Of a DNA stretch of 64,000 bases, positions 27,050 to 51,067 are shown one piece after another. The notes beneath the pieces are model-generated. The model was not told the origin of the DNA. It ran no database searches and saw only the letters and a list, made by a program, of their open reading frames with translations. Source of the DNA: Spirochaetia bacterium (GTDB taxonomy: Bacteria > Spirochaetota > Spirochaetia > CADAEX01); the NCBI GenBank assembly GCA_024402405.1, contig JAKSTW010000001.1, forward strand, positions 77,190-141,189, given 5' to 3'. Made by a program: the position numbers and the translations under genes. Each line of letters begins with the position of its first letter. The stretch's first letter is position 1.

Positions 27050-28516
27050 TTATTTAAAAAGATATTTCCTCAATTTTGAAAAAGCCTTTAATGATCTTTT
27101 CAGATCATCCGGATCAGTAAGCCCGACTCTGAGCCGGTGGAGAATGTAACGGAAACGAAGATAATATTTCTTTCTGGCAGTATTACAGAACTCCACCATT
27201 TCGTCAGCACTTAGCCCGGGAAGATTGAGCACTGTATTGTGAGTTCCATCTTCCTTGCAGTAGTGCTCATAGTCAAAAGTCATATATCCATTCTCACGGG
27301 CCCATTCGTATCCTTCAGTTCCAGGATATGGAATCAGCGGGAAAAACTGGGCAGTATCAGTATTCAGTCTCAGTGCCAGCCTCAGAGTCTCTTCCATGGT
27401 CTCTTTTGTCTCTCCCTTATTGCCAACCATATAGCAGGCATGGATAAGAAGACCGGCTTTTTTGGCATTTCTCACATATTCATATACCTGTTCCAGCCTG
27501 ATTCCTTTTTTGATATTATCCAGGATCTGCTGGCTGCCACTCTCGAAGCCTGGAATGATCAGACGGCAACCGGCTTTTTTCATCAGCTTCATAGTCTCAA
27601 GATCCAGTGTGTTGGCTCTGGCATTGCACAGCCATTTCAGACGTTTCTGCAAGCCTTTCTCAATAAGGAGCTGGGAAATTTTCTTTACCCGGGCTTTATC
27701 AATGGTGAAAGTGTCATCTTCAATGACCACTTCCTTTACATCAGGAAAATTGGCAGCAATATACTCAAACTCAGACACCACACTTTCAGGACTTCTGGCC
27801 CGGAACCGGTGACCATGCATGACCTGTGGATATACACAGAAAGTGCAGTGGCATGGGCATCCTCTTCCTGTGAAGATCTGTACAGACGGATATGTGGCCG
27901 CAGCGAAAAAATAATCACGCTCATTCAGATTTTTTTTGATGAACTCCGCCGCAAATGGTATATCATCCATATCCTCCACAGGTGGCATTTTAGGTGTGTG
28001 AACAAAGCTGCCGTTCCGGCGGAAACACAGGCCGCGCACACCATCAAGTGGCTTTCCGGCATCCATAGCATCAGCAAGTTCGCGCACTGTATAATCGAAC
28101 TCCCCTATTGCAGCAGCATCAATCTTATCGCTATAGCCCAAAGTTTCCTCTGGGCATGCCGTAGGATGAGTTCCAACCAGCAGTACAAAAGAATTCTTAT
28201 AAGCAGCCTTAAGTGATGCACCAAAAGCAACATCGCTCTTTATGGATGGTGTACTGGTGTCCAACACAAAAAGAAGCTTTTCGCCAGGTTTTGCCATTCC
28301 AGCGACAAGTTCAAGAGTCTGCTTTTCATTCAGCGGCTTTGCCGGAGCATCGATAAAATCGACCTTATGACCATACTTCTGGGAATACGCCGCAGCATAG
28401 ATAAGCCACAGCGGATAATAAAGAGCTCCGCTTTTGGTTATGGCCGGACTTCGGCTCTCCCGTGAAAATTTTCCATACTCTGCCTTGAACGGCGGATTTA
28501 TAAAAATAATATGCAT
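27050..28516 (-). CDS. B12-binding (class B) radical SAM enzyme
   Basis: 488 aa; N-terminal cobalamin-binding-like Rossmann region, then radical-SAM cluster motif GRGCPCHCTFC (CxxxCxxC) and a TIM-barrel-length C-terminal region. Confidence 0.65.
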   Translation of the reverse strand: MHIIFINPPFKAEYGKFSRESRSPAITKSGALYYPLWLIYAAAYSQKYGHKVDFIDAPAKPLNEKQTLELVAGMAKPGEKLLFVLDTSTPSIKSDVAFGASLKAAYKNSFVLLVGTHPTACPEETLGYSDKIDAAAIGEFDYTVRELADAMDAGKPLDGVRGLCFRRNGSFVHTPKMPPVEDMDDIPFAAEFIKKNLNERDYFFAAATYPSVQIFTGRGCPCHCTFCVYPQVMHGHRFRARSPESVVSEFEYIAANFPDVKEVVIEDDTFTIDKARVKKISQLLIEKGLQKRLKWLCNARANTLDLETMKLMKKAGCRLIIPGFESGSQQILDNIKKGIRLEQVYEYVRNAKKAGLLIHACYMVGNKGETKETMEETLRLALRLNTDTAQFFPLIPYPGTEGYEWARENGYMTFDYEHYCKEDGTHNTVLNLPGLSADEMVEFCNTARKKYYLRFRYILHRLRVGLTDPDDLKRSLKAFSKLRKYLFK

Positions 28517-28523
28517 ACAAACC

Positions 28524-29354
28524 TCAATATTTTCCGAAATCCAGTTCTGCCACCTGGTGAGTCGTGCGCTGCTCTACAGGAGGCAGTTTCATATAATCAC
28601 CGAAAAGTTCTGTAAGAAATTCATGGGATTTTTCCAGAACCATGAATGTGTCATCCTCAAAAGGGAACTCAGTGAAACCGTCAAAAAGATATGCACTGCG
28701 CATCTCCCGCGGGATGCCATACCGTCCCGAAAGATAAGCCATAGTATCAGTCTTTTTCCTATTCAGTCGGTATGGATAATTTATGATGGTATGCCGCAGC
28801 CATTTTTTCGGAACCCAGAAGAAACATATCTTCATGCATTCGGCAACAAATCGTTTAAGTTTTGTGGTACCGTTATGATAGCCATTCTTCATGGAATAAA
28901 GAACTACGCAGAAATTCAGAAAGCAGAAATAAAATTTTGCCAGAAATTTACTGTCATAGATAGTGTCGTATGGGAGAACATCCACCAGAAAGCCTGTATT
29001 CCCCAAAGTCTCCGGCTGCTGAACACTCCGGTAGCTGGTACCGTTAAGCACCACCTTGGCAAAGAAAGTCCCTACTTTCTCATTCTGCTGGATGCACATA
29101 AGTGAGAACTCCGGACTCAATTCTTCAGGAGCAACTTTCAGAAAACGGTCATAATCTTCCCGGAGCATGGCAATGTCAATGTCATCATCCCATGGTATGA
29201 AACCTTTATGCCGTACAGCACCTATCAAAGTACCTCCGGTAAGGAAATATTTTATATCGTGCTTTGCGCAGACTCTTTTTATCTCTTTAAGAACTTTCAG
29301 TTCCAGAAGCTGGACTTTCCTGAGTTCTTCAGGCGTAAGTTTTTTACTCATCAT
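28524..29354 (-). CDS. licD: LicD-family phospho-alcohol transferase (canonical)
   Basis: 276 aa; DIKYFLTGGTLIGAVRHKGFIPWDDDIDIAM is an almost consensus LicD motif. Confidence 0.8.
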   Translation of the reverse strand: MMSKKLTPEELRKVQLLELKVLKEIKRVCAKHDIKYFLTGGTLIGAVRHKGFIPWDDDIDIAMLREDYDRFLKVAPEELSPEFSLMCIQQNEKVGTFFAKVVLNGTSYRSVQQPETLGNTGFLVDVLPYDTIYDSKFLAKFYFCFLNFCVVLYSMKNGYHNGTTKLKRFVAECMKICFFWVPKKWLRHTIINYPYRLNRKKTDTMAYLSGRYGIPREMRSAYLFDGFTEFPFEDDTFMVLEKSHEFLTELFGDYMKLPPVEQRTTHQVAELDFGKY

Positions 29355-30577
29355 AAGTACTCAATCGGAAGAACCACAAGGTTTTCCTTTAAATAAAGTT
29401 TCTGGTCATAGCGGCACAGGATAACTCCCAATCCCCGCTTCTTTTCAACCTCTTTATCCAGGACATTGAATGCATTAGCCATAGAAACATTCGGAGATGC
29501 CGACTTTTTTATCTCTACAGGATAAAGAATTCCATCCTGCTCAATTATCAAATCAATCTCTGAATCTCTGCTTTTATCGTTTCCCCTGTAATAAAATAAA
29601 TTGAAATCATACTCCATTCCTTCGTTAGTAAATGATTTTATGATTTCGGAGACAACGAATGTCTCAAAGATATTTCCACTTATAGCACTTTCTTCAAGAG
29701 CTTCTCCACTGTACCACTTTGAAAGATAACAACACAATCCAGTATCCCTGAAGTAGAGCTTCGGCGTTTTTATTGCCCGGTTAAGATGGCTTGAATAGTA
29801 TGGTTGAAGAATATATATCAAGCCAGTCCTTTCCAAAACAGATATCCATGACTTAATTGTTACCATAGAAACTCCGACATCTTCCGCCATATTTGCATAA
29901 TTAAGCAGTTGCCCTGTTCTGGCAGCACATGCTGCTAAAAATTTACGAAAGGCGATCTCATCTTTAATATTCAGTTCGCTCCGTATGTCCCTTTCCAGAT
30001 ATGTTTTTACATAGGAAGAATAAAAATCCATCCAGTCCCGGTCTGTTGTATGAAGCTGCGGATACATCCCTCTGTGGATGATCTTCCAGAGATTTTCATA
30101 TGGTTTAAGCTTTTTTTCACGCAAGGAGATATATTCTTCTGTCGGAACAAAATGCCTGTTGAATTTCACTCCATTCAGTTCCCTGAGGGAGAGCCCCTGA
30201 AGTTCCAGAATGCTTATTCTTCCTGCAAGAGATTCCTTTGATTTTTCCATAAGCCTCATCTGCTGTGAACCTGTCAAAATATAGCTACCATAATTGTCTG
30301 TATTATCACATTCCATCTTAATGTATGGGAAAATCTTTGAAGCATACTGAACTTCGTCCAGCATCACCGGCTTTGAAGCATTTTTTATAAAAAGTTTAGG
30401 ATCTTCCTCTGATGCTTCAAGAAGAATCTGATCATCAAATGTCATATACTTTATATCAGGGAATATTTTTCTGAGCAAAGTTGATTTTCCGACCTGCCTT
30501 GGGCCAGTCAGAAGAAGACACTTGCTGGTCTTTGACCTTTTTAATACTATCTCTTCAATTTCTCGTTCAATAAACAT
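29351..30577 (-). CDS. AAA-superfamily ATPase of the AAA_14 + DUF4143 type
   Basis: 408 aa; Walker A LLTGPRQVGKSTLL, Walker B VMLDEVQ; C-terminal region typical of DUF4143 proteins; ATGA overlap with licD start. Confidence 0.6.
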   Translation of the reverse strand: MFIEREIEEIVLKRSKTSKCLLLTGPRQVGKSTLLRKIFPDIKYMTFDDQILLEASEEDPKLFIKNASKPVMLDEVQYASKIFPYIKMECDNTDNYGSYILTGSQQMRLMEKSKESLAGRISILELQGLSLRELNGVKFNRHFVPTEEYISLREKKLKPYENLWKIIHRGMYPQLHTTDRDWMDFYSSYVKTYLERDIRSELNIKDEIAFRKFLAACAARTGQLLNYANMAEDVGVSMVTIKSWISVLERTGLIYILQPYYSSHLNRAIKTPKLYFRDTGLCCYLSKWYSGEALEESAISGNIFETFVVSEIIKSFTNEGMEYDFNLFYYRGNDKSRDSEIDLIIEQDGILYPVEIKKSASPNVSMANAFNVLDKEVEKKRGLGVILCRYDQKLYLKENLVVLPIEYL

Positions 30578-32444: not shown

Positions 32445-33794
32445 TCACCTCTTTTTTCTATATTTCTGTGTCGGACTTTTAGGTTTTTCAGGCTGAGTCT
32501 GTTCTATCAGTCCCAGCTTCATGGCAGGCTGTATATAATCAACCATCAAAGTAGGACGATGTTTCAAATTCAGCCGGTCAAGTATTTCTCTGACCGAAAG
32601 CTCTGCATCAAGTACACTCAAAAGCCGCCTGACTTGTTCGGTTACTTGTTCGGTTACTTGTTCGGTTACTTGTTCGGTTACTTGTGTCCTGAAAATTGTA
32701 ACAAAAAGACCACCATCTTTTATCGCAAACTCAGGCTCAGGAAATCCAGCAGTCTTAAAACCATCTACTATTTTCCTAATCCCACGTCCCCATGACTCAA
32801 TAAAACCAGCTTTATAAAAGACATTTGCAATATTTTTATTCCTTGGCTTGGATGAATGAGGCTCAAGTAACGTCTGCGGCGTAAATCCTACAGGAAGTTC
32901 TCCCTCATTCCATAAGGTAATTCTGTCATTGAAAACCCGCATCTGAATAGGAGCACCAGAGTAATTTTTATGGATAATGGCATTAAAAATCACCTCTCTC
33001 AAGGCATCCTCAGGAATCTCCAATGGTTCAATACGTTCCAGCCTCTCATAATGGACAGGTCGGATAATATATTTTGACGAAAGAATTTCAATAACACGAT
33101 CTGCCATCTGCAAGATATTTCCCTCGATAAGATCCTGAAACAACAAATCAGTCTCATCCTTTCCAAAACGACCTATCTTAAACTGCACTGCAGTAAAAAA
33201 TCGCTGAGGATTCTTTGCAAACAGCAAGACTGCTGCATTTTTCAGGCAACCTTCAGGTGTCATCAAATTCAAATTTTCCAATATAGCTGTTTTATCATAA
33301 ATATCCATTTCTGCAGGAATTCTCCCTGATTTCAAGGCCTTGTTTATAAAATATTTTATTGCCTTATCATCAAGACTATCCAAGGTTGCAGATGAGCAAG
33401 CAACATTGTCCCAACTGATTCCCATTTTTTTAAAAAGAAATTCCTGCAATGCTATACCAGTAAGCTCCTGTTTAGTAGAACCAGACCGATAATGATAAGT
33501 ACCTTTATAGGAAATTGGAACATTAGATGCCAGAACAGTTATGCGGAGATATTCTTTTCCGTTTTCAACCAATAAATCGACATCACAGACAATCCCAAGA
33601 AGAGAAATTATTTTATTGGGAATATCCTCAAGTAATCTTCTTGAATTAGGAAGACCGCTGATATTGCCATCATCATCTATACCAATATAAAGTATCCCGC
33701 CATGTGCATTGGCAAATCCGCAGATCCATTTAAGATATTCATCATGCCATGTTTCTTTAAATTCTGTATTCTGATTCTCTTTTCTCAACATCAT
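32445..33794 (-). CDS. AlbA_2 (putative DNA-binding) + HATPase_c_4 (RecG-C-terminal-like) protein with C-terminal winged-helix segment; contains an internal (TEQV)x4 repeat
   Basis: 449 aa; N-terminal NTEFKETWHDEYLKWICGFANAHGGILYIGIDDDG is the AlbA_2 signature; central region resembles HATPase_c_4; the C-terminus (RRLLSVLDAELSVREILDRL) is HTH-like; the 12-nt tandem repeat encodes TEQVTEQVTEQVTEQV. Confidence 0.55.
   Translation of the reverse strand: MMLRKENQNTEFKETWHDEYLKWICGFANAHGGILYIGIDDDGNISGLPNSRRLLEDIPNKIISLLGIVCDVDLLVENGKEYLRITVLASNVPISYKGTYHYRSGSTKQELTGIALQEFLFKKMGISWDNVACSSATLDSLDDKAIKYFINKALKSGRIPAEMDIYDKTAILENLNLMTPEGCLKNAAVLLFAKNPQRFFTAVQFKIGRFGKDETDLLFQDLIEGNILQMADRVIEILSSKYIIRPVHYERLERIEPLEIPEDALREVIFNAIIHKNYSGAPIQMRVFNDRITLWNEGELPVGFTPQTLLEPHSSKPRNKNIANVFYKAGFIESWGRGIRKIVDGFKTAGFPEPEFAIKDGGLFVTIFRTQVTEQVTEQVTEQVTEQVRRLLSVLDAELSVREILDRLNLKHRPTLMVDYIQPAMKLGLIEQTQPEKPKSPTQKYRKKR
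32633..32686. repeat. 12-bp tandem repeat (cttgttcggtta) x4 plus a partial copy, inside CDS 32445..33794
   Basis: Seen directly: four perfect consecutive copies at 32633-32680 followed by cttgtg; in-frame (multiple of 3). Confidence 0.9.
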
Positions 33795-38223: not shown

Positions 38224-39196
38224 AAATATGTTTCCTTATAAAGTTTTTTATAGGAACAGGTATCATTCTTTTTATTTTCATCTTCAGAAGATTGACAGGA
38301 TCATATCTGAAAAGGATTTTCTCAATTTCTGCGCTTATTCTGCGGATCTTTTTCAGATTTTCATGGGTACTGTTTTTACGGTCACCATTATACATCTGGC
38401 AGAATTTTCTTCCCAGCAGTCCTATATGTGTACCGGCAAGACCATGTTCCTCATAGTATGATACTATCATACTGAATACAGACAACCTTGGGGCAGCTAC
38501 TTTATCTCTGCATCCCATTATTGAATTTGCCCTCTGCCGATATTTATAAAAATATTTATCAAGATAATATCCATACTGAATATTCACAGCATAGCAATAA
38601 AAGAAATAATTATCTTCCAGAATGTATCCGTCTGGGAATCGCAGATTCAGTTTCTTCAGCACAGAAGCCCTGAAAAGTTTATTCCATACAGTAACTGTGG
38701 TATCAAAAATAACATCATCTGTCATTTTCTGCTTGCCGGAAAATTTCATAGCATGATATTTTTTTTCACCTGTCACCCGAGGATGATCGCCAGGCAGATC
38801 ATCAGATACGATCTCAGCGCCAAAACAGACCAGGTCTATTTCTTTATCTTTCTTAAATTCATATAAAACTCGCTCATATGTATCAGGATCGATCCAGTCA
38901 TCAGAGTCTATAAAACCGATATATTCTCCGGAGGCAAGTTCAAGTCCAGCATTACGTGCTACAGACACGCCGCCTTTTTCCAGATCTACAATTTTGATAC
39001 GCTTATCACATCTAGCATATTCTTTCAGAATTTCCAGGGAATTATCTGTGGAACCATCATTAACACAGATTATTTCTATCTTATGGAAGGTCTGATTCAC
39101 CACACTGTCCAGACACTGGCGAAGATATTTCTCAACATTATAGACAGGAATTATCACTGATATCAAAGAACCATTATCTGCATTCATATAACTCAA
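38216..39196 (-). CDS. GT2-family glycosyltransferase
   Basis: 326 aa; LISVIIPVYNVEKYLRQCLDSVVNQTFHKIEIICVNDGSTDNS...FIDSDDW. Confidence 0.75.
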   Translation of the reverse strand: MSYMNADNGSLISVIIPVYNVEKYLRQCLDSVVNQTFHKIEIICVNDGSTDNSLEILKEYARCDKRIKIVDLEKGGVSVARNAGLELASGEYIGFIDSDDWIDPDTYERVLYEFKKDKEIDLVCFGAEIVSDDLPGDHPRVTGEKKYHAMKFSGKQKMTDDVIFDTTVTVWNKLFRASVLKKLNLRFPDGYILEDNYFFYCYAVNIQYGYYLDKYFYKYRQRANSIMGCRDKVAAPRLSVFSMIVSYYEEHGLAGTHIGLLGRKFCQMYNGDRKNSTHENLKKIRRISAEIEKILFRYDPVNLLKMKIKRMIPVPIKNFIRKHIFG

Positions 39197-41196
39197 TTAT
39201 TAATATCGGCAGGATTCCATTCAAGATGCAGCTTAACAATCTGGCCATTCTTAACTTTTTTCGTATATGCGAATGGCTCATCATGCCATACTATCTTGCC
39301 ATCTTGCACTATATTCTCATCATCAACTGTGAAATCAGTATAATTTATATAGACAGGAACCCGTTTATTGTCTGCATTCCGTACATCTTTTCCACGCAAT
39401 GTAATCTTCAGGTTGCCATCATGTCTGCATTTTATTTCTATATCTATATTTCCAGCATTACTTTCTATCACAGTTCCAGTTCCCTTGGCATCTGCAAACC
39501 ACTTTGGAGTATCTGTTCTTGCCGTTTTATCAGAAATACTGATTATCTTGACAGAATTTGAGGCATTTCCATAATTCTTTATGTCTATCCTACCAATGCT
39601 TTGATAAGCATCAGTAAATCTTTGCTCAGTATTTATATCAGACAAAATATACTGTTCTGAACACCAAACAGACAACCTATCAAGTTTATCTGCTTTTACC
39701 GAATCAGGAATCTTTTCTATCTTTTTATTTGAATAAAATAAAATTCTTCCGCCGTCAATCAAATCATAAGCATCTTCAATGGATTTAATGATATAAACCT
39801 CATTGGTATCTTTCAAATATGGAATGATCATACCCAATTTCCACTTTTCATCAGATAAAAGTACAATTTTATTTATGGCATCAGATTTTAAAAATTCCAG
39901 TTTATCGATTTTAGCAGCATCCAGATAATCAATATTCCTGCTGTTGGCATGAACAGGGAATGTACAGCATACCAATATAATGGTCGATATCATTCCAGCT
40001 ATGGTACCAAGGTCTATTCTCTCATTTTTTGCAGTATAAATCAAAGCAAATATAGGTATAGCAGGTGCCACATACCGTCCGGTTTTATATGGTGCCAGGA
40101 ATAGTGCAAATATATAAAACAGCAAAAGTCCACATGAAAACAGCAGAACACCACAATTTTCAGCTCTATTTTTCCTGCATAAAATTAAAATCAGATATAC
40201 GAAATTAATACACCAAAGCAATTTAAGCCATACATTGTTAAAGGTATAGATTTTCAATAAATTATAACATGTTTTTTTAAAGTTACCTGTCAGGTCATGT
40301 CCGGAAAGCTTCTGAAAGGCCGCTGTGCCTTGATATACAAAGAAACCGGAACCATAATCCCAGTATATAATCTTGGCAACCGCAAATCCAAGCAACAGAG
40401 CACCAAACATAAACAGGAGCATATCATATCGTTTATGAACGATCGTCTTTATAACCAGTATCAATCCCAGGATTCCAATATAAATCAGGGAAAAATAACC
40501 TGTCAGAAGAGTCAGTCCGATACACAGTGCACTGACCAGCATATTTCTGACATTGATGACAGGCTCATTGTTATCCACTGCCTTATAAAAGGCAAAATAA
40601 AGATATGTAAACAGGATGAACATCGTCTCCTGCAGTGGATATGGGCGCAGGAAAAGGGATGATGATATTGTCAGCGGATAAAAAAAAGCCACACACAGCC
40701 CTATAAGCACGGCCTTATCCGATGTGGTCAACTCGCACAGCAAGGCACACATCAGATAAAACGATAACATAAAAAACAGCAGATTCAGCAGGAATCCGAT
40801 CCTGATGATACAATGATAATCGCTGGTTTTTATTCCGGTGAAACACAGTCTGAACAGGCTGTAATAAAAATTAGTATGGGGAGTGTCTGGATTATTGTTC
40901 CAAAGAATTTTCAGGTCATGTAATGTATCACGTTTGCTGTCGGAATCAAACAGAAACATTTCCTTTAGCTGGGAACCAGAATATTTCTTTCCACACAATT
41001 CATCAAATGGTTTATAAAATTCATCATTATGGTTTGATATGACAACGCTGAGCCACTCATCCAGATGCAGACTCTTCTTGTTGTCACACCAGCACACCCG
41101 GCACAACATCTGAAGTATGAAGATAACCAGCAGGTAATAGAAGAATTTTTTGTTCTGTGTTCTTTTTTTTATTGTACTGTAAGGATGGATAATCAT
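39193..41196 (-). CDS. Polytopic membrane protein, putative GT-C-fold glycosyltransferase/polymerase, with a ~120-aa C-terminal extracytoplasmic domain shared with the lipoprotein at 46215..48326
   Basis: 667 aa; ~12 TM helices with an early HLDEW (DE-type) motif as in ArnT/PMT-like GT-C enzymes; C-terminal soluble domain RIDIKNYGNASNSVKIISI...WHDEPFAYTKKVKNGQIVKL. Confidence 0.35.
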   Translation of the reverse strand: MIIHPYSTIKKRTQNKKFFYYLLVIFILQMLCRVCWCDNKKSLHLDEWLSVVISNHNDEFYKPFDELCGKKYSGSQLKEMFLFDSDSKRDTLHDLKILWNNNPDTPHTNFYYSLFRLCFTGIKTSDYHCIIRIGFLLNLLFFMLSFYLMCALLCELTTSDKAVLIGLCVAFFYPLTISSSLFLRPYPLQETMFILFTYLYFAFYKAVDNNEPVINVRNMLVSALCIGLTLLTGYFSLIYIGILGLILVIKTIVHKRYDMLLFMFGALLLGFAVAKIIYWDYGSGFFVYQGTAAFQKLSGHDLTGNFKKTCYNLLKIYTFNNVWLKLLWCINFVYLILILCRKNRAENCGVLLFSCGLLLFYIFALFLAPYKTGRYVAPAIPIFALIYTAKNERIDLGTIAGMISTIILVCCTFPVHANSRNIDYLDAAKIDKLEFLKSDAINKIVLLSDEKWKLGMIIPYLKDTNEVYIIKSIEDAYDLIDGGRILFYSNKKIEKIPDSVKADKLDRLSVWCSEQYILSDINTEQRFTDAYQSIGRIDIKNYGNASNSVKIISISDKTARTDTPKWFADAKGTGTVIESNAGNIDIEIKCRHDGNLKITLRGKDVRNADNKRVPVYINYTDFTVDDENIVQDGKIVWHDEPFAYTKKVKNGQIVKLHLEWNPADINN

Positions 41197-43217
41197 AACA
41201 GCCTTTTTATTTTTTTTCTTACTTTTTTGCAGAATAATTTGACTGTATATATGAAACCATGCTGTTTGATGCAGCGCAGACCGCCTTTGAACTTTTTAAC
41301 TAACTTTTTAACCAAATAAAAATATTTGCTTGTCAGGAAAAAATATTTTCTAATAAAATTTTTATAATTCTTATCATTTTTAATTTTATGTTCCAGGAAC
41401 ATGCTACCGTGACTAGCGTCAATATATTCTAATATATTTTTCATAAAAATATCATTTTTATTTTCGGTAACATTACTTTTCCACAAAGCAGTTTCTTGTG
41501 TTTCTGGAATATATCGTAATTTACGCGCTGGATAACAATTTACTACAGGAATATTATTCATAACCTCTATCATTTTCAGCCATAAATCATCCGCAGCTAA
41601 ACACAAATGAGAAATCAATTCTTTATTATAATATTCGGATTTCATCAACTCCACTGGATATAAACACCCACCGACACCAGTTGCCAGTAATGCCATAGAT
41701 GGTATATTTAAACAATAATCATAACTATGAACCCAATCATTATAAGATTTTATTGATCCGTCTTTATTAAAGAGCATCAGATGAGTTCTCAATGTACTTA
41801 TACAATCAGGATGCAATAGATATGAAATATACAAAGATTCCAATAATTTATTATCATATAGAATATCGTCGTCAACTGTAACTACTAAATCTTTTGGATA
41901 TTTATGAAATGCATAAAAATATTTATTATGTGGACGTAAATTATCATCATACCAATGTATTTCAACTTGTTTTGAATCAACTAATGTAAGTAATGTTTTT
42001 GGCAAATTTTTTCCACTATTCTCAAATTCAGATCTTACCAAACACAAAATTATCTTATCTGCCTTATAAGTCTGATTAATAATTGCCGTCAATACAAAAT
42101 GTATACCATCTATTCTTGCAGGATATGTAGTTAAAGAAACAATTAATTTTTTATTTCTTAATTTTTGAATACATTCATATGTATTATTTTTTAATATTAA
42201 GAACTTATAATATTTTAGTTTATCACCAATCAAATCTTCTGATAAAGAAATAAATTCTGAAGTATTAAATTTTTTATGTATTGCATCATAAAAAGGTTTC
42301 ACAACATCAGCGTTAAAATCAGGACAATTATTTTCCAACCCGTAAATATAATTATCAATTATAAAACGATAAAGTGATATTTTTATTTTATTAAAATAAG
42401 GTAATTTTTTTATTTGTGCTTCTGCACTTTCTAATGCCTTTACAATATTCATTATGTTCTTTGCTTTTGTAGAAGTAATAGTGCCAGCTTGACCCCATCT
42501 ATATCTATAGAATTTTTCCGTTGTGTAACTTATTCTTTTCGCTCTTGCCAAAGCAACAGCAGCAAAAGTAATATCATTTTGCGTAGATATAGGTTCAAAA
42601 TACAAATTATTATTTCGAATGAAAGAAGCATTAAAAAGTTTGTTCCATGGCGTAGGATTTATTGTCTGCAAAATATTTTTAGGACAGTCTTTATAATTAA
42701 ATACATTATTTTTTTTATTAATTCTTTTGGGATTTATTTCTGTCCTATCAATTTCAGTACCATCTTCAAAAAATTTTACTCCGTTAAAGGCAACTATATC
42801 AGCTTTATTTTTATCTGCTAATTCCACTGTTTTTGCAAGCAAAAATTCAGAACATAAATCATCTGAATCCATAAAATATACATACTCACCTTTTGCCACA
42901 GTAAATCCTGCATTACGAGCAACACCAGCATGTAAATTTTCTTGGGTTATAACGGTAATTCTATTATCTTTTTTCGCATATTCTCTTAATATTTCTAATG
43001 AACTATCTGTAGAACCGTCATCCACGCAGATGATTTCTATTTCCTGCAAGGTCTGATTCACCACACTGTCCAGACACTGGGGCAGATACTCAGCTGTATT
43101 ATACACAGGAATAATTACTGATACTTTCGGAGTATAACCAATTTTATTTTGAATTAAAATTTTTGCAGTTGTATCTGGATCACCATTAGCATTGTGCACT
43201 AAAATTTTTTCTGTCAT
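41193..43217 (-). CDS. Two-domain glycosyltransferase (N-terminal GT2 + C-terminal second DXD-type GT domain)
   Basis: 674 aa; N-term VSVIIPVYNTAEYLPQCLDSVVNQT...FMDSDD (GT2); the second half begins KLIVSLTTYPARIDGI...VTVDDDILY, a separate GT-A-like module. Confidence 0.6.
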   Translation of the reverse strand: MTEKILVHNANGDPDTTAKILIQNKIGYTPKVSVIIPVYNTAEYLPQCLDSVVNQTLQEIEIICVDDGSTDSSLEILREYAKKDNRITVITQENLHAGVARNAGFTVAKGEYVYFMDSDDLCSEFLLAKTVELADKNKADIVAFNGVKFFEDGTEIDRTEINPKRINKKNNVFNYKDCPKNILQTINPTPWNKLFNASFIRNNNLYFEPISTQNDITFAAVALARAKRISYTTEKFYRYRWGQAGTITSTKAKNIMNIVKALESAEAQIKKLPYFNKIKISLYRFIIDNYIYGLENNCPDFNADVVKPFYDAIHKKFNTSEFISLSEDLIGDKLKYYKFLILKNNTYECIQKLRNKKLIVSLTTYPARIDGIHFVLTAIINQTYKADKIILCLVRSEFENSGKNLPKTLLTLVDSKQVEIHWYDDNLRPHNKYFYAFHKYPKDLVVTVDDDILYDNKLLESLYISYLLHPDCISTLRTHLMLFNKDGSIKSYNDWVHSYDYCLNIPSMALLATGVGGCLYPVELMKSEYYNKELISHLCLAADDLWLKMIEVMNNIPVVNCYPARKLRYIPETQETALWKSNVTENKNDIFMKNILEYIDASHGSMFLEHKIKNDKNYKNFIRKYFFLTSKYFYLVKKLVKKFKGGLRCIKQHGFIYTVKLFCKKVRKKIKRLL

Positions 43218-43251: not shown

Positions 43252-44778
43252 TCACAGACTGTCCCGATATTTTTTCACTGTTTCTCCGGGATCTCCATCA
43301 GCCATTATCTTTCCATGATCGAACCAGATCGCCCGCGTACATTCTTTTTCAACAAATCCCAGACTATGAGTAACCACGATCACGGCCTTGGCGTTTTTCA
43401 TCATGCAGTGAATGGTATCGCTGGCTTTTTTCTGGAAAGAAGCATCTCCAGCGCTGAGAGCTTCATCAATGATGAAAAGTTCAGGCTGGATCGCCGCAGC
43501 AATGCTGAATCCAAGTTTTGAACGCATTCCGCTGGAATAATTCTTCACTTCCTTATCCACATCTTTGCCCAGATCAGCAAACTCAAGGATCTGAGGGCGG
43601 AGTTCCAGCAGTTTTTTCTTAGGTATACCGATCATCATGCCATTAAGAAGAATATTGTCTGAAGCCGGAAGCTGCATATTGAATCCCGACCCCAATGACA
43701 GCAGAGCAGAGGTTTTGCCATCAACAGTAAGAGTTCCCTCATCAGGACGGTAAATACCGGTCAGCACACGGCAGAGTGTAGATTTCCCGGCTCCATTATG
43801 CCCGATGATACCTACAATATCCCCTTCTTTTATCTCAAAACTTACATTCCGCAGTGCCCAGAATTTATCTTTTCCGATCCTGAAGCAGATCCCCATAGCA
43901 GTCGCCTTAATGAAGGTTTTGGCATCAGATATTGGCATAGGTCCAGCAGGCACTTTTTTTATAACTTCCAGATTTTTTCTCACCACAGATGCCGGAGCAG
44001 GAACTTTCTTCTGCGGGATATAGCCTTTTCCATAAACAGATTCAAGGTATGCATCTGCAACTTTCTCAGGAGCCCCTTCTGACTTTATATATCCCTTGTC
44101 GATCCATATTGCCCTGGTGCAGCGAGATCTGACAAATTCCATATCATGAGTGACTATCACGATCATCCGGGCTTTTTTTATCAGCTCTTCCATTTTTGCG
44201 GCTGACTTCTGACGGAACCTTTCGTCTCCGGTGCTTAAAGTCTCATCCAGAACCAGTGTTTCAGGGGCCAGCATGGCAGCTATGCTGAATCCAAGGCGGA
44301 CACGCATACCGGAGGAATATTTTTTCAGAGGGATCCTGATAAATTCTCCAAGCTCTGAAAATTCCACTATCTCATTGAAATGCTGTCTCATCTCCCGGTG
44401 GGAAAATCCCATCATCATTCCATTGAGATAAATATTTTCTTCTCCTGTAAGCTCATTGTCAAAACCGGCACCAAGAGACAGAAGTGCAGATACATTTCCG
44501 TCTATGGAAAGTTTTCCGCGGTCAGGTCTCAGAAGATCACTCAGGATCCTGCACAGAGTGGTCTTCCCGGTGCCATTGGAACCGATAATGCCCAGAATTT
44601 CTCCGGCAAATCCTTCAAAGCTGATATCCTGAAGTATCCATTTTTTTCCTCTACCGGCTTTCTTTCCTTTGGCTATATTCAGCATCATGGAACGGAAATC
44701 ATCGCAGGTACGGTCTGCATAATAATAGAGAGCTAAATTCTGTGCATCGATTATTTTTTCAGGATCATCACTCATCAT
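43252..44778 (-). CDS. ABC-2-type polysaccharide/teichoic-acid exporter ATP-binding protein (TagH/Wzt/KpsT-like) with two tandem NBDs
   Basis: 508 aa; two complete sets of Walker A (GSNGTGKTT; GHNGAGKST), signature (YSSGMRVRLGFSIA; YSSGMRSKLGFSIA) and Walker B (LVLDETLS; FIIDEALS). Confidence 0.7.
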   Translation of the reverse strand: MMSDDPEKIIDAQNLALYYYADRTCDDFRSMMLNIAKGKKAGRGKKWILQDISFEGFAGEILGIIGSNGTGKTTLCRILSDLLRPDRGKLSIDGNVSALLSLGAGFDNELTGEENIYLNGMMMGFSHREMRQHFNEIVEFSELGEFIRIPLKKYSSGMRVRLGFSIAAMLAPETLVLDETLSTGDERFRQKSAAKMEELIKKARMIVIVTHDMEFVRSRCTRAIWIDKGYIKSEGAPEKVADAYLESVYGKGYIPQKKVPAPASVVRKNLEVIKKVPAGPMPISDAKTFIKATAMGICFRIGKDKFWALRNVSFEIKEGDIVGIIGHNGAGKSTLCRVLTGIYRPDEGTLTVDGKTSALLSLGSGFNMQLPASDNILLNGMMIGIPKKKLLELRPQILEFADLGKDVDKEVKNYSSGMRSKLGFSIAAAIQPELFIIDEALSAGDASFQKKASDTIHCMMKNAKAVIVVTHSLGFVEKECTRAIWFDHGKIMADGDPGETVKKYRDSL

Positions 44779-45551
44779 AAAGCCTTGACGATCTTATGCT
44801 CATTTTTATCAAAAAACCATAACAATCCCAGAATTGCAGCCACAGAGAAACCCATCAGAACAGCAAGAAGCCTGAAATCAGGGAATCTTCCATACATGAA
44901 TACATCTCTGTATGCCTGAAGCAGCCAGGCGATTGGATCATATCTGACCACCCACTGATATTTTTCAGGCAGAAATGTAACCTCCCATATTACAGGGGCA
45001 ATGAAATGAAGGATCATTATTATGTGTCCCACTACATTCTTAAAGTCCCGGATAAATATGCAGATATAGGAAAGGAACATGGCTATGGCCAGCTGGAACA
45101 GCAGTTGTACCAGAATGATCAGCGGCAGGCATACCAGCTGTATTCCCGGCATTCTGTGGAAAAACAGCATGAATCCCTCAACTATCAGAAGTCCGAACAG
45201 AAAGTTTATAGTCTGGGACAGAGTAGTTCCCACCGCAAAAATAGCCTTGGGCAGATAGACCTGGGTTATTATTCCGCTGTGGGACAGAATGGCATTGCAG
45301 GACATGCTTACTGTGGTGCTGAAATACCTGAACACGATCATTCCGACAACAAGAAACGGTGAATAATCAGGAGAGCCGCGTTTCATTATCACAGCTACAA
45401 GAAAATAATAAATCAATATATTCAGAAACGGATCCAGCAGCCACCATAAATAACCAAGCGCCGTGTTTCTGTTCTCTGCCTTCAATCCGGTGACCACCAG
45501 ATAGGAAACCAGATCTTTTCGCTTCCACATCTCCTTCATATATCTGATCAT
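44775..45551 (-). CDS. ABC-2-type exporter permease (TagG/Wzm/KpsM family)
   Basis: 258 aa, 6 TM helices; YLWWLLDPFLNILIYYFLV is the ABC-2 family signature region. Confidence 0.7.
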   Translation of the reverse strand: MIRYMKEMWKRKDLVSYLVVTGLKAENRNTALGYLWWLLDPFLNILIYYFLVAVIMKRGSPDYSPFLVVGMIVFRYFSTTVSMSCNAILSHSGIITQVYLPKAIFAVGTTLSQTINFLFGLLIVEGFMLFFHRMPGIQLVCLPLIILVQLLFQLAIAMFLSYICIFIRDFKNVVGHIIMILHFIAPVIWEVTFLPEKYQWVVRYDPIAWLLQAYRDVFMYGRFPDFRLLAVLMGFSVAAILGLLWFFDKNEHKIVKAL

Positions 45552-46087
45552 GATTCAATTCCTTTTCCGTCAATATTTCCTGTTATGTTCAGAATAAAAA
45601 GTTCTTCGATATCATGCCCTATGATAAAAATACAGGAATTTTTATCAGAAACCGAATCCACAAGTTCCAGTCTGTTTTTCAGACACATATATTCAGCAAT
45701 TCCGCGCAGAAAACTGGAAACAGGAATATAAACTTTCCGGATATCTTTCCCAGCCTGCTGATAAATTATCTTTTCCAGCAGCTCTGAATAATATCTCATT
45801 CTTGAATTAAATTCAGAGATCTCCAGCGCTGAATCTGCTTTCAGCATTCCGATACCAGCCTCTGTCAGCTGATAGCGCATATTACGGCTGTTGGTCTTTA
45901 TCAATCTGATAAGTCCATTTTTCTCCATATTCCGGAGAATGGCATTGATCATACCCAATGATAAGGATGCAGCATCTGCAAGCTCACGCTGCTTGATGGA
46001 GGAGTTTTTATAAATATGTCTGAGGATAACGGTTTCTTTAGTCACCAGTTCAAGATTCAGGGCATAATCTGCCCAGTGAAATGACAT
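45548..46087 (-). CDS. Winged-helix (MarR/PadR-like) transcriptional regulator; first gene of the minus-strand operon
   Basis: 179 aa; SIKQRELADAASLSLGMINAILRNMEKNGLI is an HTH; 127-bp promoter-type gap upstream (46088-46214) containing a TTGTTC-n7-GAACAA inverted repeat. Confidence 0.45.
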   Translation of the reverse strand: MSFHWADYALNLELVTKETVILRHIYKNSSIKQRELADAASLSLGMINAILRNMEKNGLIRLIKTNSRNMRYQLTEAGIGMLKADSALEISEFNSRMRYYSELLEKIIYQQAGKDIRKVYIPVSSFLRGIAEYMCLKNRLELVDSVSDKNSCIFIIGHDIEELFILNITGNIDGKGIES

Positions 46088-46214: not shown

Positions 46215-48326
46215 TTAAGGAGTTGAATACTGCTTATATACTGCATCTGTAATTTTTTCAATATTCTGCTTGATATATTCATTTTCAGGATAAAGCTTCA
46301 GAATCGTATCCTGCAGTTCTGCCCTGGAATACTGATGTGGCTGTGTCGTTACTTCTACTTCAACTATCTGACCATCTTTCACAGCCATTTCATATTTATA
46401 TGGTTTGTCGTGCCATGTAGCAACAGGAGCAGATAATATCTCATGTCCATTTATTTTAATAGAAGAATAATCCGCCCAAAGAGGGAAACGGACATTATCT
46501 ATTCTTTTATCAATTCCCTTGAAAGCAAGTTTAAGCTGGCCATTATTTTTTATCTCAATGGTCATTTTCTGCTTCGCAATTGAACTCTCAACGACCTTTC
46601 CATGTCCCTTGGAATCAGAAAACCATGAAGGTTCAGTAACTTTTTCTGTACTTTTAATTACAATACGATTATTCTCACCACCATAATTCTTTATATCTAT
46701 GCGTGAAGAATTCAGTATAGAAAGGAGATAATGTTTTATTGGATCCATATGGGAAATTTTTGATGTCGACTGCCATTGCTTATCCTTTCCAAAGACCTCA
46801 CTTCTGAGCCAGTCAGTACGAACAGCCAGCCAATATGAAATATAATTCATATCCTCCTGAACAGTATTATAATTTTTACTCCACCTGACAGAATCATATT
46901 TTCTGGACTGATTTATCTCATCGATCAATGCCTTATCAAAACTATGAAAAAAATCCTGCACATCATTCTGCACAGATTCTGTCATCAGAGACATTTTTTC
47001 ATTATAAATTTTCTGGAATGCAGGATTTTTACTATTAATAAAATCATTTTCATAAAAATTTGTTTTAATTTCTCCGGTCTGTGTTATGTAATTAAATGTC
47101 GAATCAAAATCCCATACTGTAGCTATTTTTATCTTTGAATTTTCTGTATTATCATACTTTACTAAATATTTATTTGTTCCATATCGGTCTTTGGTTCCTA
47201 CAATATTATGAAAAAGATAAAAGCTGGTAAAAGAATCAACATCCAGAATATCATCGTATGTACCTTGCTTTATAGAATTTTTCATTTCATCTATCTCTCT
47301 CTTCACAGCAGAAATTCTTTCATCATCTAAATCTTTATCTTCAGGGTATTTAAAAGAATAATAATTAGAAGATCGAAATTTCTTTTTATCCTCAAACTGA
47401 CTGCGCCATAAATTCTCAACACAGAAACCGCTTTTATCAACCAATATTTTATTCTCAGTACCTGCTTCTACTGCTTCAATCAGCAGATAAATTCCTCTAT
47501 ACTCATTGTTCATCACCACATTCACAAATGTCCACTTTGGAATCCAGTCAAAATCAAATTTCGATGCTATATGAAAAGCAGTTACTGTATTCAGGGTATT
47601 GGCATCCCAGAGCAGACTCCATTCTTTTGACTTATATCCGGTACTTTTGCCAGTGATACATTCCAGTAGATCAGCATCTTTCTCAAGTTTTATCTTATAT
47701 GGTTTCTTGGAACCATAAGCACTGCTGTTTCCCCTTATACGGATTTTCATTCCTGACTGTTTCTTTGCATACTCCCCGCTGTCATAAAGAACTCTTTCCG
47801 CTTTTAATATTTTAACCTGCCCCGGTACTTTTATTTTATTTTCAACAGTCCAAGCTTTGGTTTTTTCCTTAGTATATTCTGCTGTAGGCTCCACATTATC
47901 TACTGTATTAATATTCAAAACAGGAAGCGCATCAATTTTCTGAGTCACATGGGCTGTCCTAGTATAAGCAAGTTCTTCAGCACCATCTGACACTGTTTTT
48001 ATTTGGCAGAAATAATCATTTTCAAGGTAGTTACTTCTAGGAATCGGCAAAGTTATAACAATCTTACTACCTTTTTTCAGGGAATATATACTGCCTGAAT
48101 CTTCCAATGAGATAGCAGATTCCATGCTGTTTCCATTAAACCACTGGACATTGACCTGACAATTTCTATTGGCCTGGATCTGAAAACTCAATTCATACTT
48201 TTCTTCTTCATACATCTGAAAAGTTATATCTTCAGGCTGAGAAATAATAGAAATAAATTCTTCCTCATTACTGCACGATACAGCAAGCAAGGTCAAAATA
48301 ATTATAAAAATTAAATATCTTTTCAT
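46215..48326 (-). CDS. Secreted lipoprotein with central CotH-like (atypical kinase fold) domain and C-terminal domain shared with 39193..41196
   Basis: Likely start at MKRYLIFIIILTLLAVSCSNEEEF (lipobox LAVSC); the ORF-track start 48410 overlaps the metK stop. Central region IRIRGNSSAYGSKKPYKIKL...NKYLVKYDN...ATVWDFDSTFNY resembles CotH-family motifs (recalled, not searched). C-terminal RIDIKNYGGENNRIVIKS...WHDKPYKYEMAVKDGQIVEV. Confidence 0.4.
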   Translation of the reverse strand: MKRYLIFIIILTLLAVSCSNEEEFISIISQPEDITFQMYEEEKYELSFQIQANRNCQVNVQWFNGNSMESAISLEDSGSIYSLKKGSKIVITLPIPRSNYLENDYFCQIKTVSDGAEELAYTRTAHVTQKIDALPVLNINTVDNVEPTAEYTKEKTKAWTVENKIKVPGQVKILKAERVLYDSGEYAKKQSGMKIRIRGNSSAYGSKKPYKIKLEKDADLLECITGKSTGYKSKEWSLLWDANTLNTVTAFHIASKFDFDWIPKWTFVNVVMNNEYRGIYLLIEAVEAGTENKILVDKSGFCVENLWRSQFEDKKKFRSSNYYSFKYPEDKDLDDERISAVKREIDEMKNSIKQGTYDDILDVDSFTSFYLFHNIVGTKDRYGTNKYLVKYDNTENSKIKIATVWDFDSTFNYITQTGEIKTNFYENDFINSKNPAFQKIYNEKMSLMTESVQNDVQDFFHSFDKALIDEINQSRKYDSVRWSKNYNTVQEDMNYISYWLAVRTDWLRSEVFGKDKQWQSTSKISHMDPIKHYLLSILNSSRIDIKNYGGENNRIVIKSTEKVTEPSWFSDSKGHGKVVESSIAKQKMTIEIKNNGQLKLAFKGIDKRIDNVRFPLWADYSSIKINGHEILSAPVATWHDKPYKYEMAVKDGQIVEVEVTTQPHQYSRAELQDTILKLYPENEYIKQNIEKITDAVYKQYSTP

Positions 48327-48406: not shown

Positions 48407-49561
48407 TCACAGTGCTCTTTTAATTGCTTCAACCTTATCCAGCTTTTCCCATGCAAAGATATCCCGCCCGAAATGCCCGTAAGAAGCTGTCCTGCGATAG
48501 ATCGGTTTTTTCAGATCCAGTGTCTTTATTATTCCGGCAGGTGAAAGATCAAAGATATCGGTGATCGCCTTCTCGATCTTCTTTTCTTCCACCACGGCAG
48601 TTCCGAAAGTATCCACCATGACAGACACAGGGAACGGCACACCGATGGCATAGGCCAGCTGGACTTCACAACGGCTGCAGGCACCTGATGCCACCACATT
48701 CTTGGCTATGTATCTGGCCATATATGCTGCAGAACGGTCGACTTTGCTGGGATCTTTTCCTGAGAAAGCACCACCGCCATGACGCCCCATGCCGCCGTAT
48801 GTATCAACGATGATCTTACGTCCTGTCAGTCCGGTATCCCCGTGGGGACCTCCTGTGACGAACCTGCCTGTAGGGTTAATGAAATAACTGGTACCCTCAT
48901 GGGTGAAGTTCTCTTCTTCAAGGACCGGATCTATGATCTGAGAAATGATGATATCCCTCAATTCCTCATAACTGATGTTCTCATCATGCTGATGTGAGAC
49001 AACCACAGTATCTATTCTTTTCGGAATAAAGCCCTCATACTCTATTGTCACCTGGCTCTTGGAATCAGGACGCAGACATCCGATGGTACCGCTTTTTCTC
49101 AGCTCAGTAGCTTTCAGAAGGATCTTATGTGCCAGCATGACAGGTGCAGGCATCAGCTCCTTTGTTTCAGAACAGGCAAATCCGAACATCAGTCCCTGGT
49201 CACCGGCTCCCTGCTGTCCTTTATACAGTCCGGTACCGGAAACACCCTGAGAAATATCAGGAGACTGGGAATGAATGGTATTCAGCACCGCCATGGAATC
49301 ACAGTCCAGACCATATTCAGCTTTGGTATACCCGATATCCTTAGCCACATCTCTGGCGATCTGCTGCACATCCACATATGTCTCAGTTGTGATCTCGCCG
49401 CCTATCAGAACCATTCCGGTAGTAGCAAAACACTCACATGCGACCCTGGATTCAGGATCATCCTGAAGGCAGGCATCCAGTACACCGTCGGAAATCTGAT
49501 CACAGAGTTTGTCAGGATGTCCCTCGCCCACGGACTCAGATGTAAATAAATATTTTTTCAT
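48407..49561 (-). CDS. metK: S-adenosylmethionine synthetase
   Basis: Start taken at [25 protein letters not shown] (the track ORF has 7 extra codons); [16 protein letters not shown] motif; full-length MetK. Confidence 0.9.
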
Positions 49562-49578
49562 ATCAAATCCCTCATAAA

Positions 49579-51003
49579 TCAATATCTGTAAAAATCAGGC
49601 TTGTAAGGACCTTCCACCGGAACTCCTATATAATCGGCCTGTGCCTGGGTCAGTGTTGTCAGCTTCACACCGATCTTCTCCAGATGGAGACGGGCAACTT
49701 CCTCATCAAGTTTCTTAGGCAATCTGTAGACCTCAGGTTTCAGCTCATTCTGCTTTTCCCACAGTTCGATCTGTGCCAGCACCTGATTGGTGAAAGAATT
49801 GGACATGACAAAAGATGGATGTCCTGTGGCACAGCCAAGATTCACAAGACGCCCCTCTGCCAAAATATAAATGGCACGGCCGTCTGGCAGGATATACATA
49901 TCATACTGCGGTTTGATATTCACATGTCTGATTCCCGGAACTTCTTTCAGCTTGCCGACCTGGATCTCGCTGTCAAAATGGCCGATGTTACATACAATAG
50001 CCTGATCTTTCATCTTAAGCATATGTTCCACTGTGATGACATCAATGTTGCCGGTTGCAGTAACATAAATATCAGCCTTGCCCAGAGTATCTTCTGTCGT
50101 TGTCACCTCATATCCTTCCATGGCAGCCTGCAGCGCACAGATAGGATCTGCCTCAGTGACCAGCACTCTGGCACCCATTCCACGCAGAGACTGAGCAACT
50201 CCCTTGCCCACGTCACCATATCCGCAGACAACAGCGACCTTACCGGCGATCATAACATCAGTTCCACGCTTGATACCATCCAGCAAGGACTCTCTGATTC
50301 CATACATATTGTCAAATTTGCTCTTTGTGACAGAATCGTTCACATTTATGGCAGGGAACAGCAGCTTTCCGGAAGCAGCCATATTATACAGACGGTGGAC
50401 ACCTGTGGTAGTCTCCTCAGAGACACCCCTCAGATCTTTGACCAGGTCATGCCAGTGATTTCTGTCCTTTTCATACACCTTCTTCAGCTGCTTTAAAAGA
50501 TAATATTCATCATTGCTTCCTGCCTTTTTATTCAGCAGTTCAGGATCGTTCTCAATATCATATCCCAGGTGAACCATAAGTGTGGCATCACCGCCATCAT
50601 CCACGATCAGCTGCGGTCCTTTTCCTCCAGGGAACGAGAAAGCATTGTACAGATACTCCCAGTATTCCTCAAGAGACTCACCCTTATAGGCAAACACATT
50701 TGCCCCGGCAGGCTCCTCTTTTGTTCCCTTGCCTACGACTACCCCGGCAGCTGCATGATCCTGAGTGGAAAAAATATTGCAGCTGGACCAGCGGACTTCA
50801 GCACCTAACTCAATCAATGTCTCTATCAGGACAGCTGTCTGTATGGTCATATGAAGAGATCCTGTGATTCTGACTCCCTTCAATGGTTTTGTCGGACCAT
50901 ATTTTTTTCTGATGGACATAAGTCCAGGCATCTCGTATTCAGAAACTGTTATTTCCTTTCTGCCCCAATCACACAAGTTTATGTCTTTGATAATATAATC
51001 CAT
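49579..51003 (-). CDS. ahcY: Adenosylhomocysteinase
   Basis: Start taken at [18 protein letters not shown] (ATG at complement of 51001-51003, preceded by GGAGGA SD); NAD-binding GYGDVGKG motif; the track ORF N-terminal extension lacks an RBS. Confidence 0.9.
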
Positions 51004-51067
51004 AGCTGTCCTCCATTCTAAGAAATTATCACTTTTATTTTTTTTTATAAAGTGGTATTGTTGTTTT

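Follow-up and report, generated by a model that had tools for sequence, protein, structure and literature searches.

Two otherwise unrelated envelope proteins encoded by one glycan locus of a spirochaete end in copies of the same domain, a member of a large uncurated family of beta-sandwich accessory modules, each of about 125 residues, found on enzymes of lipid-linked cell-surface glycopolymers. The locus lies in a stretch of 64,000 nucleotides, here called the window, from a Spirochaetia bacterium (GTDB lineage Bacteria; Spirochaetota; Spirochaetia; CADAEX01; assembly GCA_024402405.1, contig JAKSTW010000001.1, positions 77,190 to 141,189 of the forward strand). One carrier is a 667-residue polytopic membrane protein of the GT-C glycosyltransferase (GT) fold and the other a 703-residue CotH-family lipoprotein, their genes lying about 7 kb apart, both on the minus strand. 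The domain family is new but of a functional kind already known, and there is perhaps an even chance that the module acts as a non-catalytic tether, similar to a carbohydrate-binding module (CBM), that would hold enzymes on the lipid-linked glycopolymer. To our knowledge, few cases of accessory polymer-binding modules on glycan-synthesis enzymes have been described, those being TarS, Wzt and EmbC; the present module occurs on at least ten classes of enzyme, cytoplasmic as well as extracytoplasmic, and has no entry in Pfam, NCBIfam or the PDB.

The shared module

The original prediction, made from the sequence alone, had matched the two C-termini by eye over 39193-39590 and about 46215-46710. 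Their similarity is real and significant, as a BLASTP comparison of the full-length proteins aligned residues 535-662 of the 667-residue protein with residues 541-663 of the CotH protein with E=4e-24, 47 identities in 128 positions (37 %), 58 % positives and 5 gap positions, whereas every other segment had E>=2. The peptides quoted at the time are reproduced by translation of 39211..39594 (-) and 46218..46706 (-), and the ranges were accurate to within a few codons, the first taking in five residues after the module plus the stop codon and the second a 40-residue tail. Based on BLASTP, translation and searches with a profile hidden Markov model (HMM), supplemented for the first copy by an AlphaFold2 (AF2) model, copy A occupies 39211..39594 (-) and is of a 'short' type that ends in ...EWNP, and copy B occupies 46338..46706 (-) and is of a 'long' type. 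Long-type modules have as their companion a tail of about 40 residues, equivalent to profile positions ~170-212, which in the CotH protein is HQYSRAELQDTILKLYPENEYIKQNIEKITDAVYKQYSTP (46218..46337, minus strand) and which is conserved in the family representatives P0002-P0004 and many others. When all six-frame open reading frames (ORFs) of the window were searched with the module profile, exactly two matched, namely those of the two carriers, at 4e-58 for copy A and 2e-84 for copy B. The family signature, R-x-D-x-K-N, P-x-W, G-x-G, G, D-x-R, R-x-P and W-H-D-x-P, is intact in both copies. A recent duplication inside the locus was considered as their origin and rejected, the copies being 37-38 % identical and of different subtypes, and copy B being 58 % identical to an alphaproteobacterial module.

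The AF2 model of copy A, with a predicted local distance difference test score (pLDDT) of 93.2, is a compact all-beta sandwich of 11 strands, in agreement with the fold that had been guessed. The module had also been described as unrecognized, and the curated resources bear this out. Pfam gave no family for copy A at E<=10 and, at the same threshold, only the GH127 middle domain (PF20736, 0.065) for copy B; NCBIfam gave no match for the module; and PDB sequences searched with profiles of 7 and of 58 module sequences gave nothing meaningful. Likewise, Foldseek found no match of the module in the PDB or BFVD at E<=1e-3, its noise-level matches being lectin-like jelly rolls (CBM35, CBM4, PA14, phage tail-fibre tips and C1q-like domains). 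The weak matches to lambda gpJ and similar proteins had prompted the idea of a phage receptor-binding module, which was dropped once a search of IMG/VR returned no relative of the module. Among 58 diverse modules compared with Pfam, sub-threshold matches were sporadic (NPCBM 0.12, SusF_SusE 0.076, Filamin 0.03), and the sole curated family to match recurrently, albeit weakly, was PF20736, the middle domain of GH127 beta-L-arabinofuranosidases. It matched 7 of the 58 at E<=1 (best 0.0039), mostly without reaching its gathering score of 24.2 bits, and two multi-copy carriers at full length with 1e-6 and 7.6e-6. Like the module, PF20736 is a non-catalytic beta-sandwich on carbohydrate-active enzymes; however, its matches span approximately the second half of the module only, copy A gives none, and no GH127 chain in the PDB was recovered with the module by profile or by Foldseek.

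Across 211 instances, the signature positions are 63-99 % conserved and are mostly polar, aromatic or Gly/Pro. In the numbering of copy A, R535 is kept in 93 %, D537 in 94 %, K539 in 83 %, P563 in 92 %, W565 in 95 %, G571 in 94 %, G573 in 96 %, G593 in 99 %, D603 in 81 %, P613 in 96 %, W636 in 80 %, H637 in 91 %, D638 in 79 % and P640 in 82 %. Polar and aromatic positions so conserved would suit a binding site. They could also be read as catalytic, since His, Asp, Arg and Lys are among them, and the module might then be a small phosphodiesterase or transferase acting on the polymer; this is highly improbable for a beta-sandwich of 125 residues that occurs in up to four tandem copies, always accompanies true catalytic domains and gives no match to an enzyme family. 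The opposite view, that the module is an inert, immunoglobulin-like (Ig-like) filler without a ligand that merely sets the distance of catalytic domains from the membrane or from each other, would fit the fold, the tandem arrays and the sub-threshold matches to non-catalytic beta-sandwiches such as the GH127 middle domain and OCRL ASH. Nevertheless, conservation of surface-type R, D, W and H above 90 % across phyla and domains of life is rare in spacers, the distribution described below is strictly limited to glycan enzymes, and the cross-phylum spread evident in the 58 % identity between a spirochaete and an alphaproteobacterium suggests a selectable function, all of which makes a mere stalk very unlikely.

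A widespread family on glycan enzymes

Word-indexed searches, which returned 6 and 23 matches and short fragments, had suggested a rare, locus-specific domain, an impression overturned by an exhaustive HMM search of 1.84 billion cluster representatives (clusters at 50 % identity). At least 1107 clusters belong to the family at E<=1e-3, 932 of them reaching E<=1e-10 and 324 reaching E<=1e-30, so the module is not special to the locus of the window. Proteins of ~100-1850 residues carry one to four copies placed N-terminally, internally or C-terminally, at times in tandem, and stand-alone forms also occur; such variation in number and position is typical of binding modules. Among 132 representatives, the Pfam partners are GT2 (57), GT8 (16), TupA-like ATP-grasp (14) and DUF1796 (9), followed by GT1/4, GT61, TagF-like, Capsule_synth, FkbM methyltransferase and sulfotransferase domains, with one case each of PMT_2, GtrII and CotH; the CotH case is the window protein, the combination of CotH and module being unique among them to the genome of the window, which is a metagenome-assembled genome (MAG). 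Carriers found in individual loci add LicD, GT10 and DUF6270. Thus, rather than showing a generic distribution, the module is confined to enzymes of glycan pathways. Of the 153 best family representatives, about 140 lack a transmembrane (TM) segment, and these are nucleotide-sugar-dependent cytoplasmic enzymes. The designation 'extracytoplasmic domain' in the original prediction therefore agrees with the predicted location of both window copies but does not extend to the family.

Several side observations concern individual carriers. DUF6270 (PF19786) and DUF1796 (PF08795, 'putative papain-like peptidase') are recurrently fused to the module (L003, L034 and representatives P0007-P0138), which suggests that both are glycopolymer-modifying enzymes. 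Some carriers have a long coiled coil after their modules (P0018, P0030, P0003 and P0028), and P0018 and P0030 end in the amphipathic motifs …SNWWYRVFHRLKLVD and …SGWWYKVFHRLKLVG, an arrangement that is reminiscent of membrane-anchored coiled-coil 'ruler' proteins such as WbdD. Stand-alone module proteins adjoin glycan genes (L001 655..1338; L005/L007 12499..13008), one form being a 227-residue module with tail and coiled coil and the others consisting of a signal-anchor plus the module in ~170 residues. Carrier P0010 has a GT2 domain that shares 41 % identity (E=1e-65) with Cj1434 of Campylobacter jejuni, a biochemically characterized capsule-polymerizing GalfNAc transferase (PMC11800379). 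Identity of the module with the 'domain of unknown function' of C. jejuni Cj1438/Cj1434 was rejected, as the C-terminus of Cj1434 is helical, hydrophobic and devoid of the signature, only the GT2 part being homologous.

The hosts are diderm bacteria and Methanobrevibacter. The species-representative genomes that have the module come from gut and rumen organisms, and hosts include many uncultured Alphaproteobacteria, rabbit Akkermansia, Selenomonas/Selenomonadaceae, Ruminobacter amylophilus DSM 1361 and Methanobrevibacter. The nearest relative of copy B is a module in L011, from an alphaproteobacterial rumen MAG, at 58 % identity, compared with 38 % to copy A, which indicates that the module has passed horizontally between phyla in gut and rumen organisms.

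The two carriers in the window

The gene for the 667-residue protein (39193..41196, minus strand, stop included) was defined from the ORF list, AF2 and Foldseek. Its AF2 model (pLDDT 84.8) comprises a membrane core of 11 TM helices (residues 1-415; 39952..41196), a small alpha/beta domain common to all homologues (residues 434-512; 39661..39897; alignment and model), a low-confidence linker with pLDDT <50 at residues 512-529 (residues 513-534; 39595..39660) and the module. DSSP of the model, hydropathy and invariant columns place the helices at residues 16-38, 127-156, 160-181, 186-208, 216-230, 235-253, 257-277, 322-340, 348-367, 369-388 and 396-412. Pfam has no family for the protein, and its sole NCBIfam match, NF047440 (the Leptospira LA_3751/LA_3752 putative glycosyltransferase; 30.8 bits, E=1.3e-7, against a cutoff of 200 bits), marks on sequence a distant relative only. 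The expectation of a GT-C-like enzyme was upheld by structure, as each of the 20 best Foldseek matches in the PDB is a GT-C enzyme, led by DPY19 (2.8e-4), ALG12 (7.3e-4) and EmbC (9.8e-4) and continuing with STT3, ALG9, ArnT and AglB; the probabilities are 0.98-1.0, with modest E-values of 3e-4 to 3e-2 and TM-scores of 0.26-0.53.

The 18 closest homologues, Treponema sp. MAG proteins among them, are 27-34 % identical, and all 18 end before the module, at the linker; the module is therefore a lineage-specific addition to the GT-C protein. In an alignment of the protein with these homologues and P0045 (20 sequences in all), D46-E47 is invariant directly after TM1 in the first extracytoplasmic loop, where GT-C enzymes have a conserved acidic motif, and the same loop holds D94, H107 and Y111-Y112, likewise invariant. 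R184/Y186, G284 and P369/R374/Y375 are also shared with the homologues. Since K/R-rich stretches occur at the N-terminus and after TM2, 4, 6, 8 and 10, in the protein as in its homologues, with the invariant motifs in the remaining loops, an N-in, C-out topology is predicted, which would place copy A outside the cytoplasm. A cytoplasmic C-terminus, which hinged on whether the one doubtful helix (369-388) spans the membrane, was rejected, the homologues having 16-19 hydrophobic residues there followed by K/R-rich loops, which speaks for a genuine TM segment. Among the genes of the window that were scanned, none was recognized as a GtrB-like donor synthase with C-terminal TM segments. The start of the GT-C gene is overlapped by 4 bases by 41193..43217 (-), which encodes a 674-residue protein with a GT2 domain (residues 33-173) and, in its C-terminal half (~350-600), which has no Pfam match, a second DxD-like region.

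The CotH gene (46215..48326, minus strand, stop included; ORF list, Pfam and translation) is open upstream to a GTG at 48410, with the ATG at 48326 beginning a lipoprotein signal peptide. That the product is a CotH-like lipoprotein, as had been claimed, is supported by a full-profile match to PF08757 (positions 1-322 of 322; E=1.7e-23; 84.1 bits against a cutoff of 23.8), which defines a CotH kinase-fold domain at residues 195-507 (46806..47744), and by the signal peptide MKRYLIFIIILTLLAVS followed by the lipobox Cys18 (48273..48326; translation, by inspection), which is the only hydrophobic segment. The NCBI name of an identical protein, encoded on a 152-kb MAG contig, is 'CotH kinase family protein [Spirochaetia bacterium]', and searches of PDB sequences gave no match. 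A WDFD motif is visible by eye, kinase activity being putative. Copy B, like copy A, is thus predicted to lie outside the cytoplasm. The CotH gene is directly preceded, on its own strand, by metK and ahcY of the S-adenosylmethionine (SAM) cycle (48407..51132), and a MarR/winged-helix regulator gene (45548..46087) lies between the CotH gene and the ATP-binding cassette (ABC) permease gene.

Carriers within loci and the role of the module

The minus-strand neighbours of the two carriers encode a TagG/Wzm-like permease, a TagH/Wzt-like ATPase with tandem nucleotide-binding domains (NBDs), several GT2 enzymes, a Wzx-like protein, Stealth, IspD-like cytidylyltransferase, LicD and TagF-like proteins and a Bac_transf initiating enzyme, and the locus is probably one for a phosphodiester-containing, teichoic-acid-like surface polymer. 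Elsewhere, too, carriers cluster, with two to five in 17 of the 36 genomic loci, and in at least 8 loci a TM-less carrier of GT2 type is next to a polytopic one. GtrII-type proteins have the module between TM1 and TM2 (L015, L016, L020, L021, L025, L028 and L031). In Akkermansia, L020 encodes GT2-module and GT2-TupA-module proteins, both TM-less, together with a polytopic GtrII-family protein with the module between TM1 and TM2; the alphaproteobacterial L015 pairs a 1740-residue triple-GT2 carrier with a GtrII protein of the same build; L036 has a GT10 fucosyltransferase with the module and two polytopic proteins with the module C-terminal; and L003 of Methanobrevibacter has LicD and DUF6270 carriers. 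An obligatory tie to ABC-transporter export was rejected, as GT2 dominated the Pfam families counted in 87 ORFs of 7 loci and ABC families were absent from the top of that list.

Such clustering is what would be seen if the module served oligomerization, gathering enzymes of the same compartment into homo- or hetero-oligomers, which in the window would be the GT-C enzyme and the CotH lipoprotein in the periplasm. Akkermansia and alphaproteobacterial loci repeatedly pair a long with a short subtype, a helical tail and in some carriers a coiled coil (P0003, P0028, P0018 and P0030) come after long-type modules, and both the CBM-like domains of TarS, which form a trimer interface (PMC5156392), and the carbohydrate-binding domains of Wzt, which are strand-swapped dimers (PMC9445017), offer precedents. 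However, in the recurrent pairings one carrier is cytoplasmic (TM-less) and the other has its module in a periplasmic loop, which makes docking impossible, and up to four tandem copies per chain and a charged/aromatic/Gly/Pro signature are less typical of interfaces. More generally, carriers of one locus are often on opposite membrane faces and therefore cannot dock with each other through the module, so that docking between carriers is disfavoured as the general role of what the original prediction had called a ligand-binding or docking module. Scaffolding is for these reasons an unlikely function.

The occurrence on both faces could also mean that what the module recognizes is the membrane surface or the lipid carrier. 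Binding to a phospholipid head group or to undecaprenyl-(pyro)phosphate would then keep enzymes at the membrane face where their lipid-linked substrate is. An invariant basic and aromatic signature among producers of different polymers would fit an invariant ligand, TM-less GT2 carriers need a route to the membrane, and the three modules of P0010 stand where its homologue Cj1434 has a hydrophobic, helical C-terminal region. On the other hand, such binding would be redundant on polytopic or lipid-anchored proteins, including both carriers in the window, the window modules are by inspection roughly charge-neutral, and no C2 or other lipid-binding fold was matched significantly, the only hit being one sub-threshold C2_GRDP (0.096). 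Lipid binding accordingly appears quite unlikely.

The tether reading, to which an even chance was given above and which takes up the polymer recognition suggested in the original prediction, supposes that the ligand of the module is the glycopolymer chain itself or some conserved feature of its lipid-linked intermediate and that, once bound, the module would keep the catalytic domain on the polymeric acceptor. In the window, the polymer would be made in the cytoplasm and would leave it through the TagG/TagH-like ABC transporter, and the exported chain would then be acted on, via their modules, by two extracytoplasmic enzymes, the GT-C-fold transferase, presumably using a polyprenyl-phosphate-sugar donor, and the CotH kinase-fold lipoprotein. 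In favour of tethering, the partners are almost exclusively glycopolymer enzymes of unrelated folds, and the simplest explanation for carriers on both membrane faces is that the shared ligand is a lipid-linked chain that is made inside and decorated outside. The short type on the GT-C protein and the long type with its 40-residue tail on the CotH protein were acquired independently, which fits with both enzymes acting on the exported chain; two lineage-specific fusions of different subtypes to extracytoplasmic proteins of one locus point to selection tied to that locus.

Several points weigh against tethering to the polymer. First, a nearest neighbour within the same locus was found for only 13 of 51 modules, and co-adaptation of modules within a locus was rejected on that count. 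Second, the module has no significant structural or sequence match to known CBMs, lectins or the Wzt, TarS and EmbC domains. Third, no phosphate donor is obvious for an ATP-dependent kinase fold that lies outside the cytoplasm. Fourth, the polar signature is near-invariant across carriers that presumably make very different polymers, which is easier to reconcile with a common ligand (a lipid-carrier head group, phosphate or metal) or a structural role than with recognition of a particular polymer.

A more specific proposal, which is speculative and probably incorrect in its full form, is that the module reads a conserved feature of the lipid-linked glycopolymer, such as a carrier-proximal primer, a phosphodiester unit or a terminal cap, on both membrane faces, and thereby addresses cytoplasmic polymerases and periplasmic GT-C/GtrII decorators, here also the CotH lipoprotein, to the same chain. 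If so, the module would represent a shared substrate-addressing system spread horizontally among gut and rumen bacteria and methanogens, and the extracytoplasmic CotH enzyme would act on a glycan and not on a protein. Whatever the ligand, its definition would allow thousands of hypothetical regions in the capsule, teichoic-acid and O-antigen loci of gut and rumen organisms to be annotated, and would give insight into how multi-enzyme glycan pathways retain their substrates across export, a possible affinity reagent for glycopolymers and a pointer to the substrate of the poorly understood secreted CotH proteins.

Other genes of the locus

The export ATPase (44778 to 43252 on the minus strand, i.e. 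43252..44778) is a single chain of 508 residues with two tandem TagH/Wzt-like NBDs and without a C-terminal carbohydrate-binding domain, and it pairs with one Wzm/TagG-like permease gene (44775..45551). Between a GT2 gene and a TagF-like gene, inside the glycan locus, 23696..26269 (-) encodes an 857-residue protein with a YidC/60KD_IMP insertase domain (residues 31-217) and ~640 further residues without a Pfam match. A B12-binding radical-SAM enzyme (27050..28516, minus strand), which may modify the polymer or a precursor, is encoded directly downstream of the LicD gene (28524..29354). The run of glycan genes is broken by 32445..33794 (-), for a protein with Schlafen AlbA_2, HATPase_c_4 and Fic-like_C domains, and by 29351..30577 (-), for an AAA_14/DUF4143 ATPase, which may be regulators or inserted defence-type genes.

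Comparison with known systems

A parallel in position and logic to the GT2-module carriers P0010, P0023 and those of L020 is TarS of Staphylococcus aureus, a cytoplasmic GT2 that decorates a polyol-phosphate glycopolymer and bears C-terminal tandem CBM-like (Ig-like) domains; polymer binding is proposed for these CBM48/68-like, trimer-forming domains, which the chemistry does not require (PMC5156392). However, they have no sequence or fold match with the module (the PDB-sequence profile search was empty in this respect and TarS was not among the Foldseek matches), and the module, unlike the TarS domains, is also present on periplasmic GT-C enzymes and a CotH lipoprotein. The carbohydrate-binding domain of Wzt, which reads a lipid-linked polymer in the cytoplasm, is similarly a jelly-roll/beta-sandwich on a component of an ABC-transporter-dependent glycan pathway (PMC9445017). 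As with the module, a beta-sandwich is appended to a glycan pathway component, although no homology was detected by PDB-sequence profile or Foldseek, the tandem-NBD ATPase of the window lacks such a domain, and that of Wzt is confined to the transporter whereas the module is on many enzyme classes at both membrane faces. EmbC and EmbB, mycobacterial GT-C arabinosyltransferases, have a C-terminal extracytoplasmic lectin-like CBM that binds the polymeric acceptor (PMC3044687). They share with the 667-residue protein the combination of a GT-C membrane enzyme and a C-terminal extracytoplasmic beta-sandwich, and EmbC is among its top fold matches (7bvh_A, E=9.8e-4); however, that match stems from the membrane core, no significant neighbour of the module by itself was found in the PDB, and the Emb C-terminal domains are larger and consist of two subdomains. 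The GtrII serotype-converting glucosyltransferases (PF14264) are periplasmic polymer modifiers, the same functional class as that proposed for the GT-C protein of the window, and in Akkermansia and alphaproteobacterial loci proteins of the GtrII family have the module in periplasmic loop 1, a loop that is important for function in the classical Gtr proteins of Shigella; the 667-residue protein differs in not belonging to the GtrII family (no Pfam match) and in having its module at the C-terminus. Without being detectably homologous to them, the tethering proposed for the module would be analogous in logic to the cases of TarS, Wzt and EmbC.

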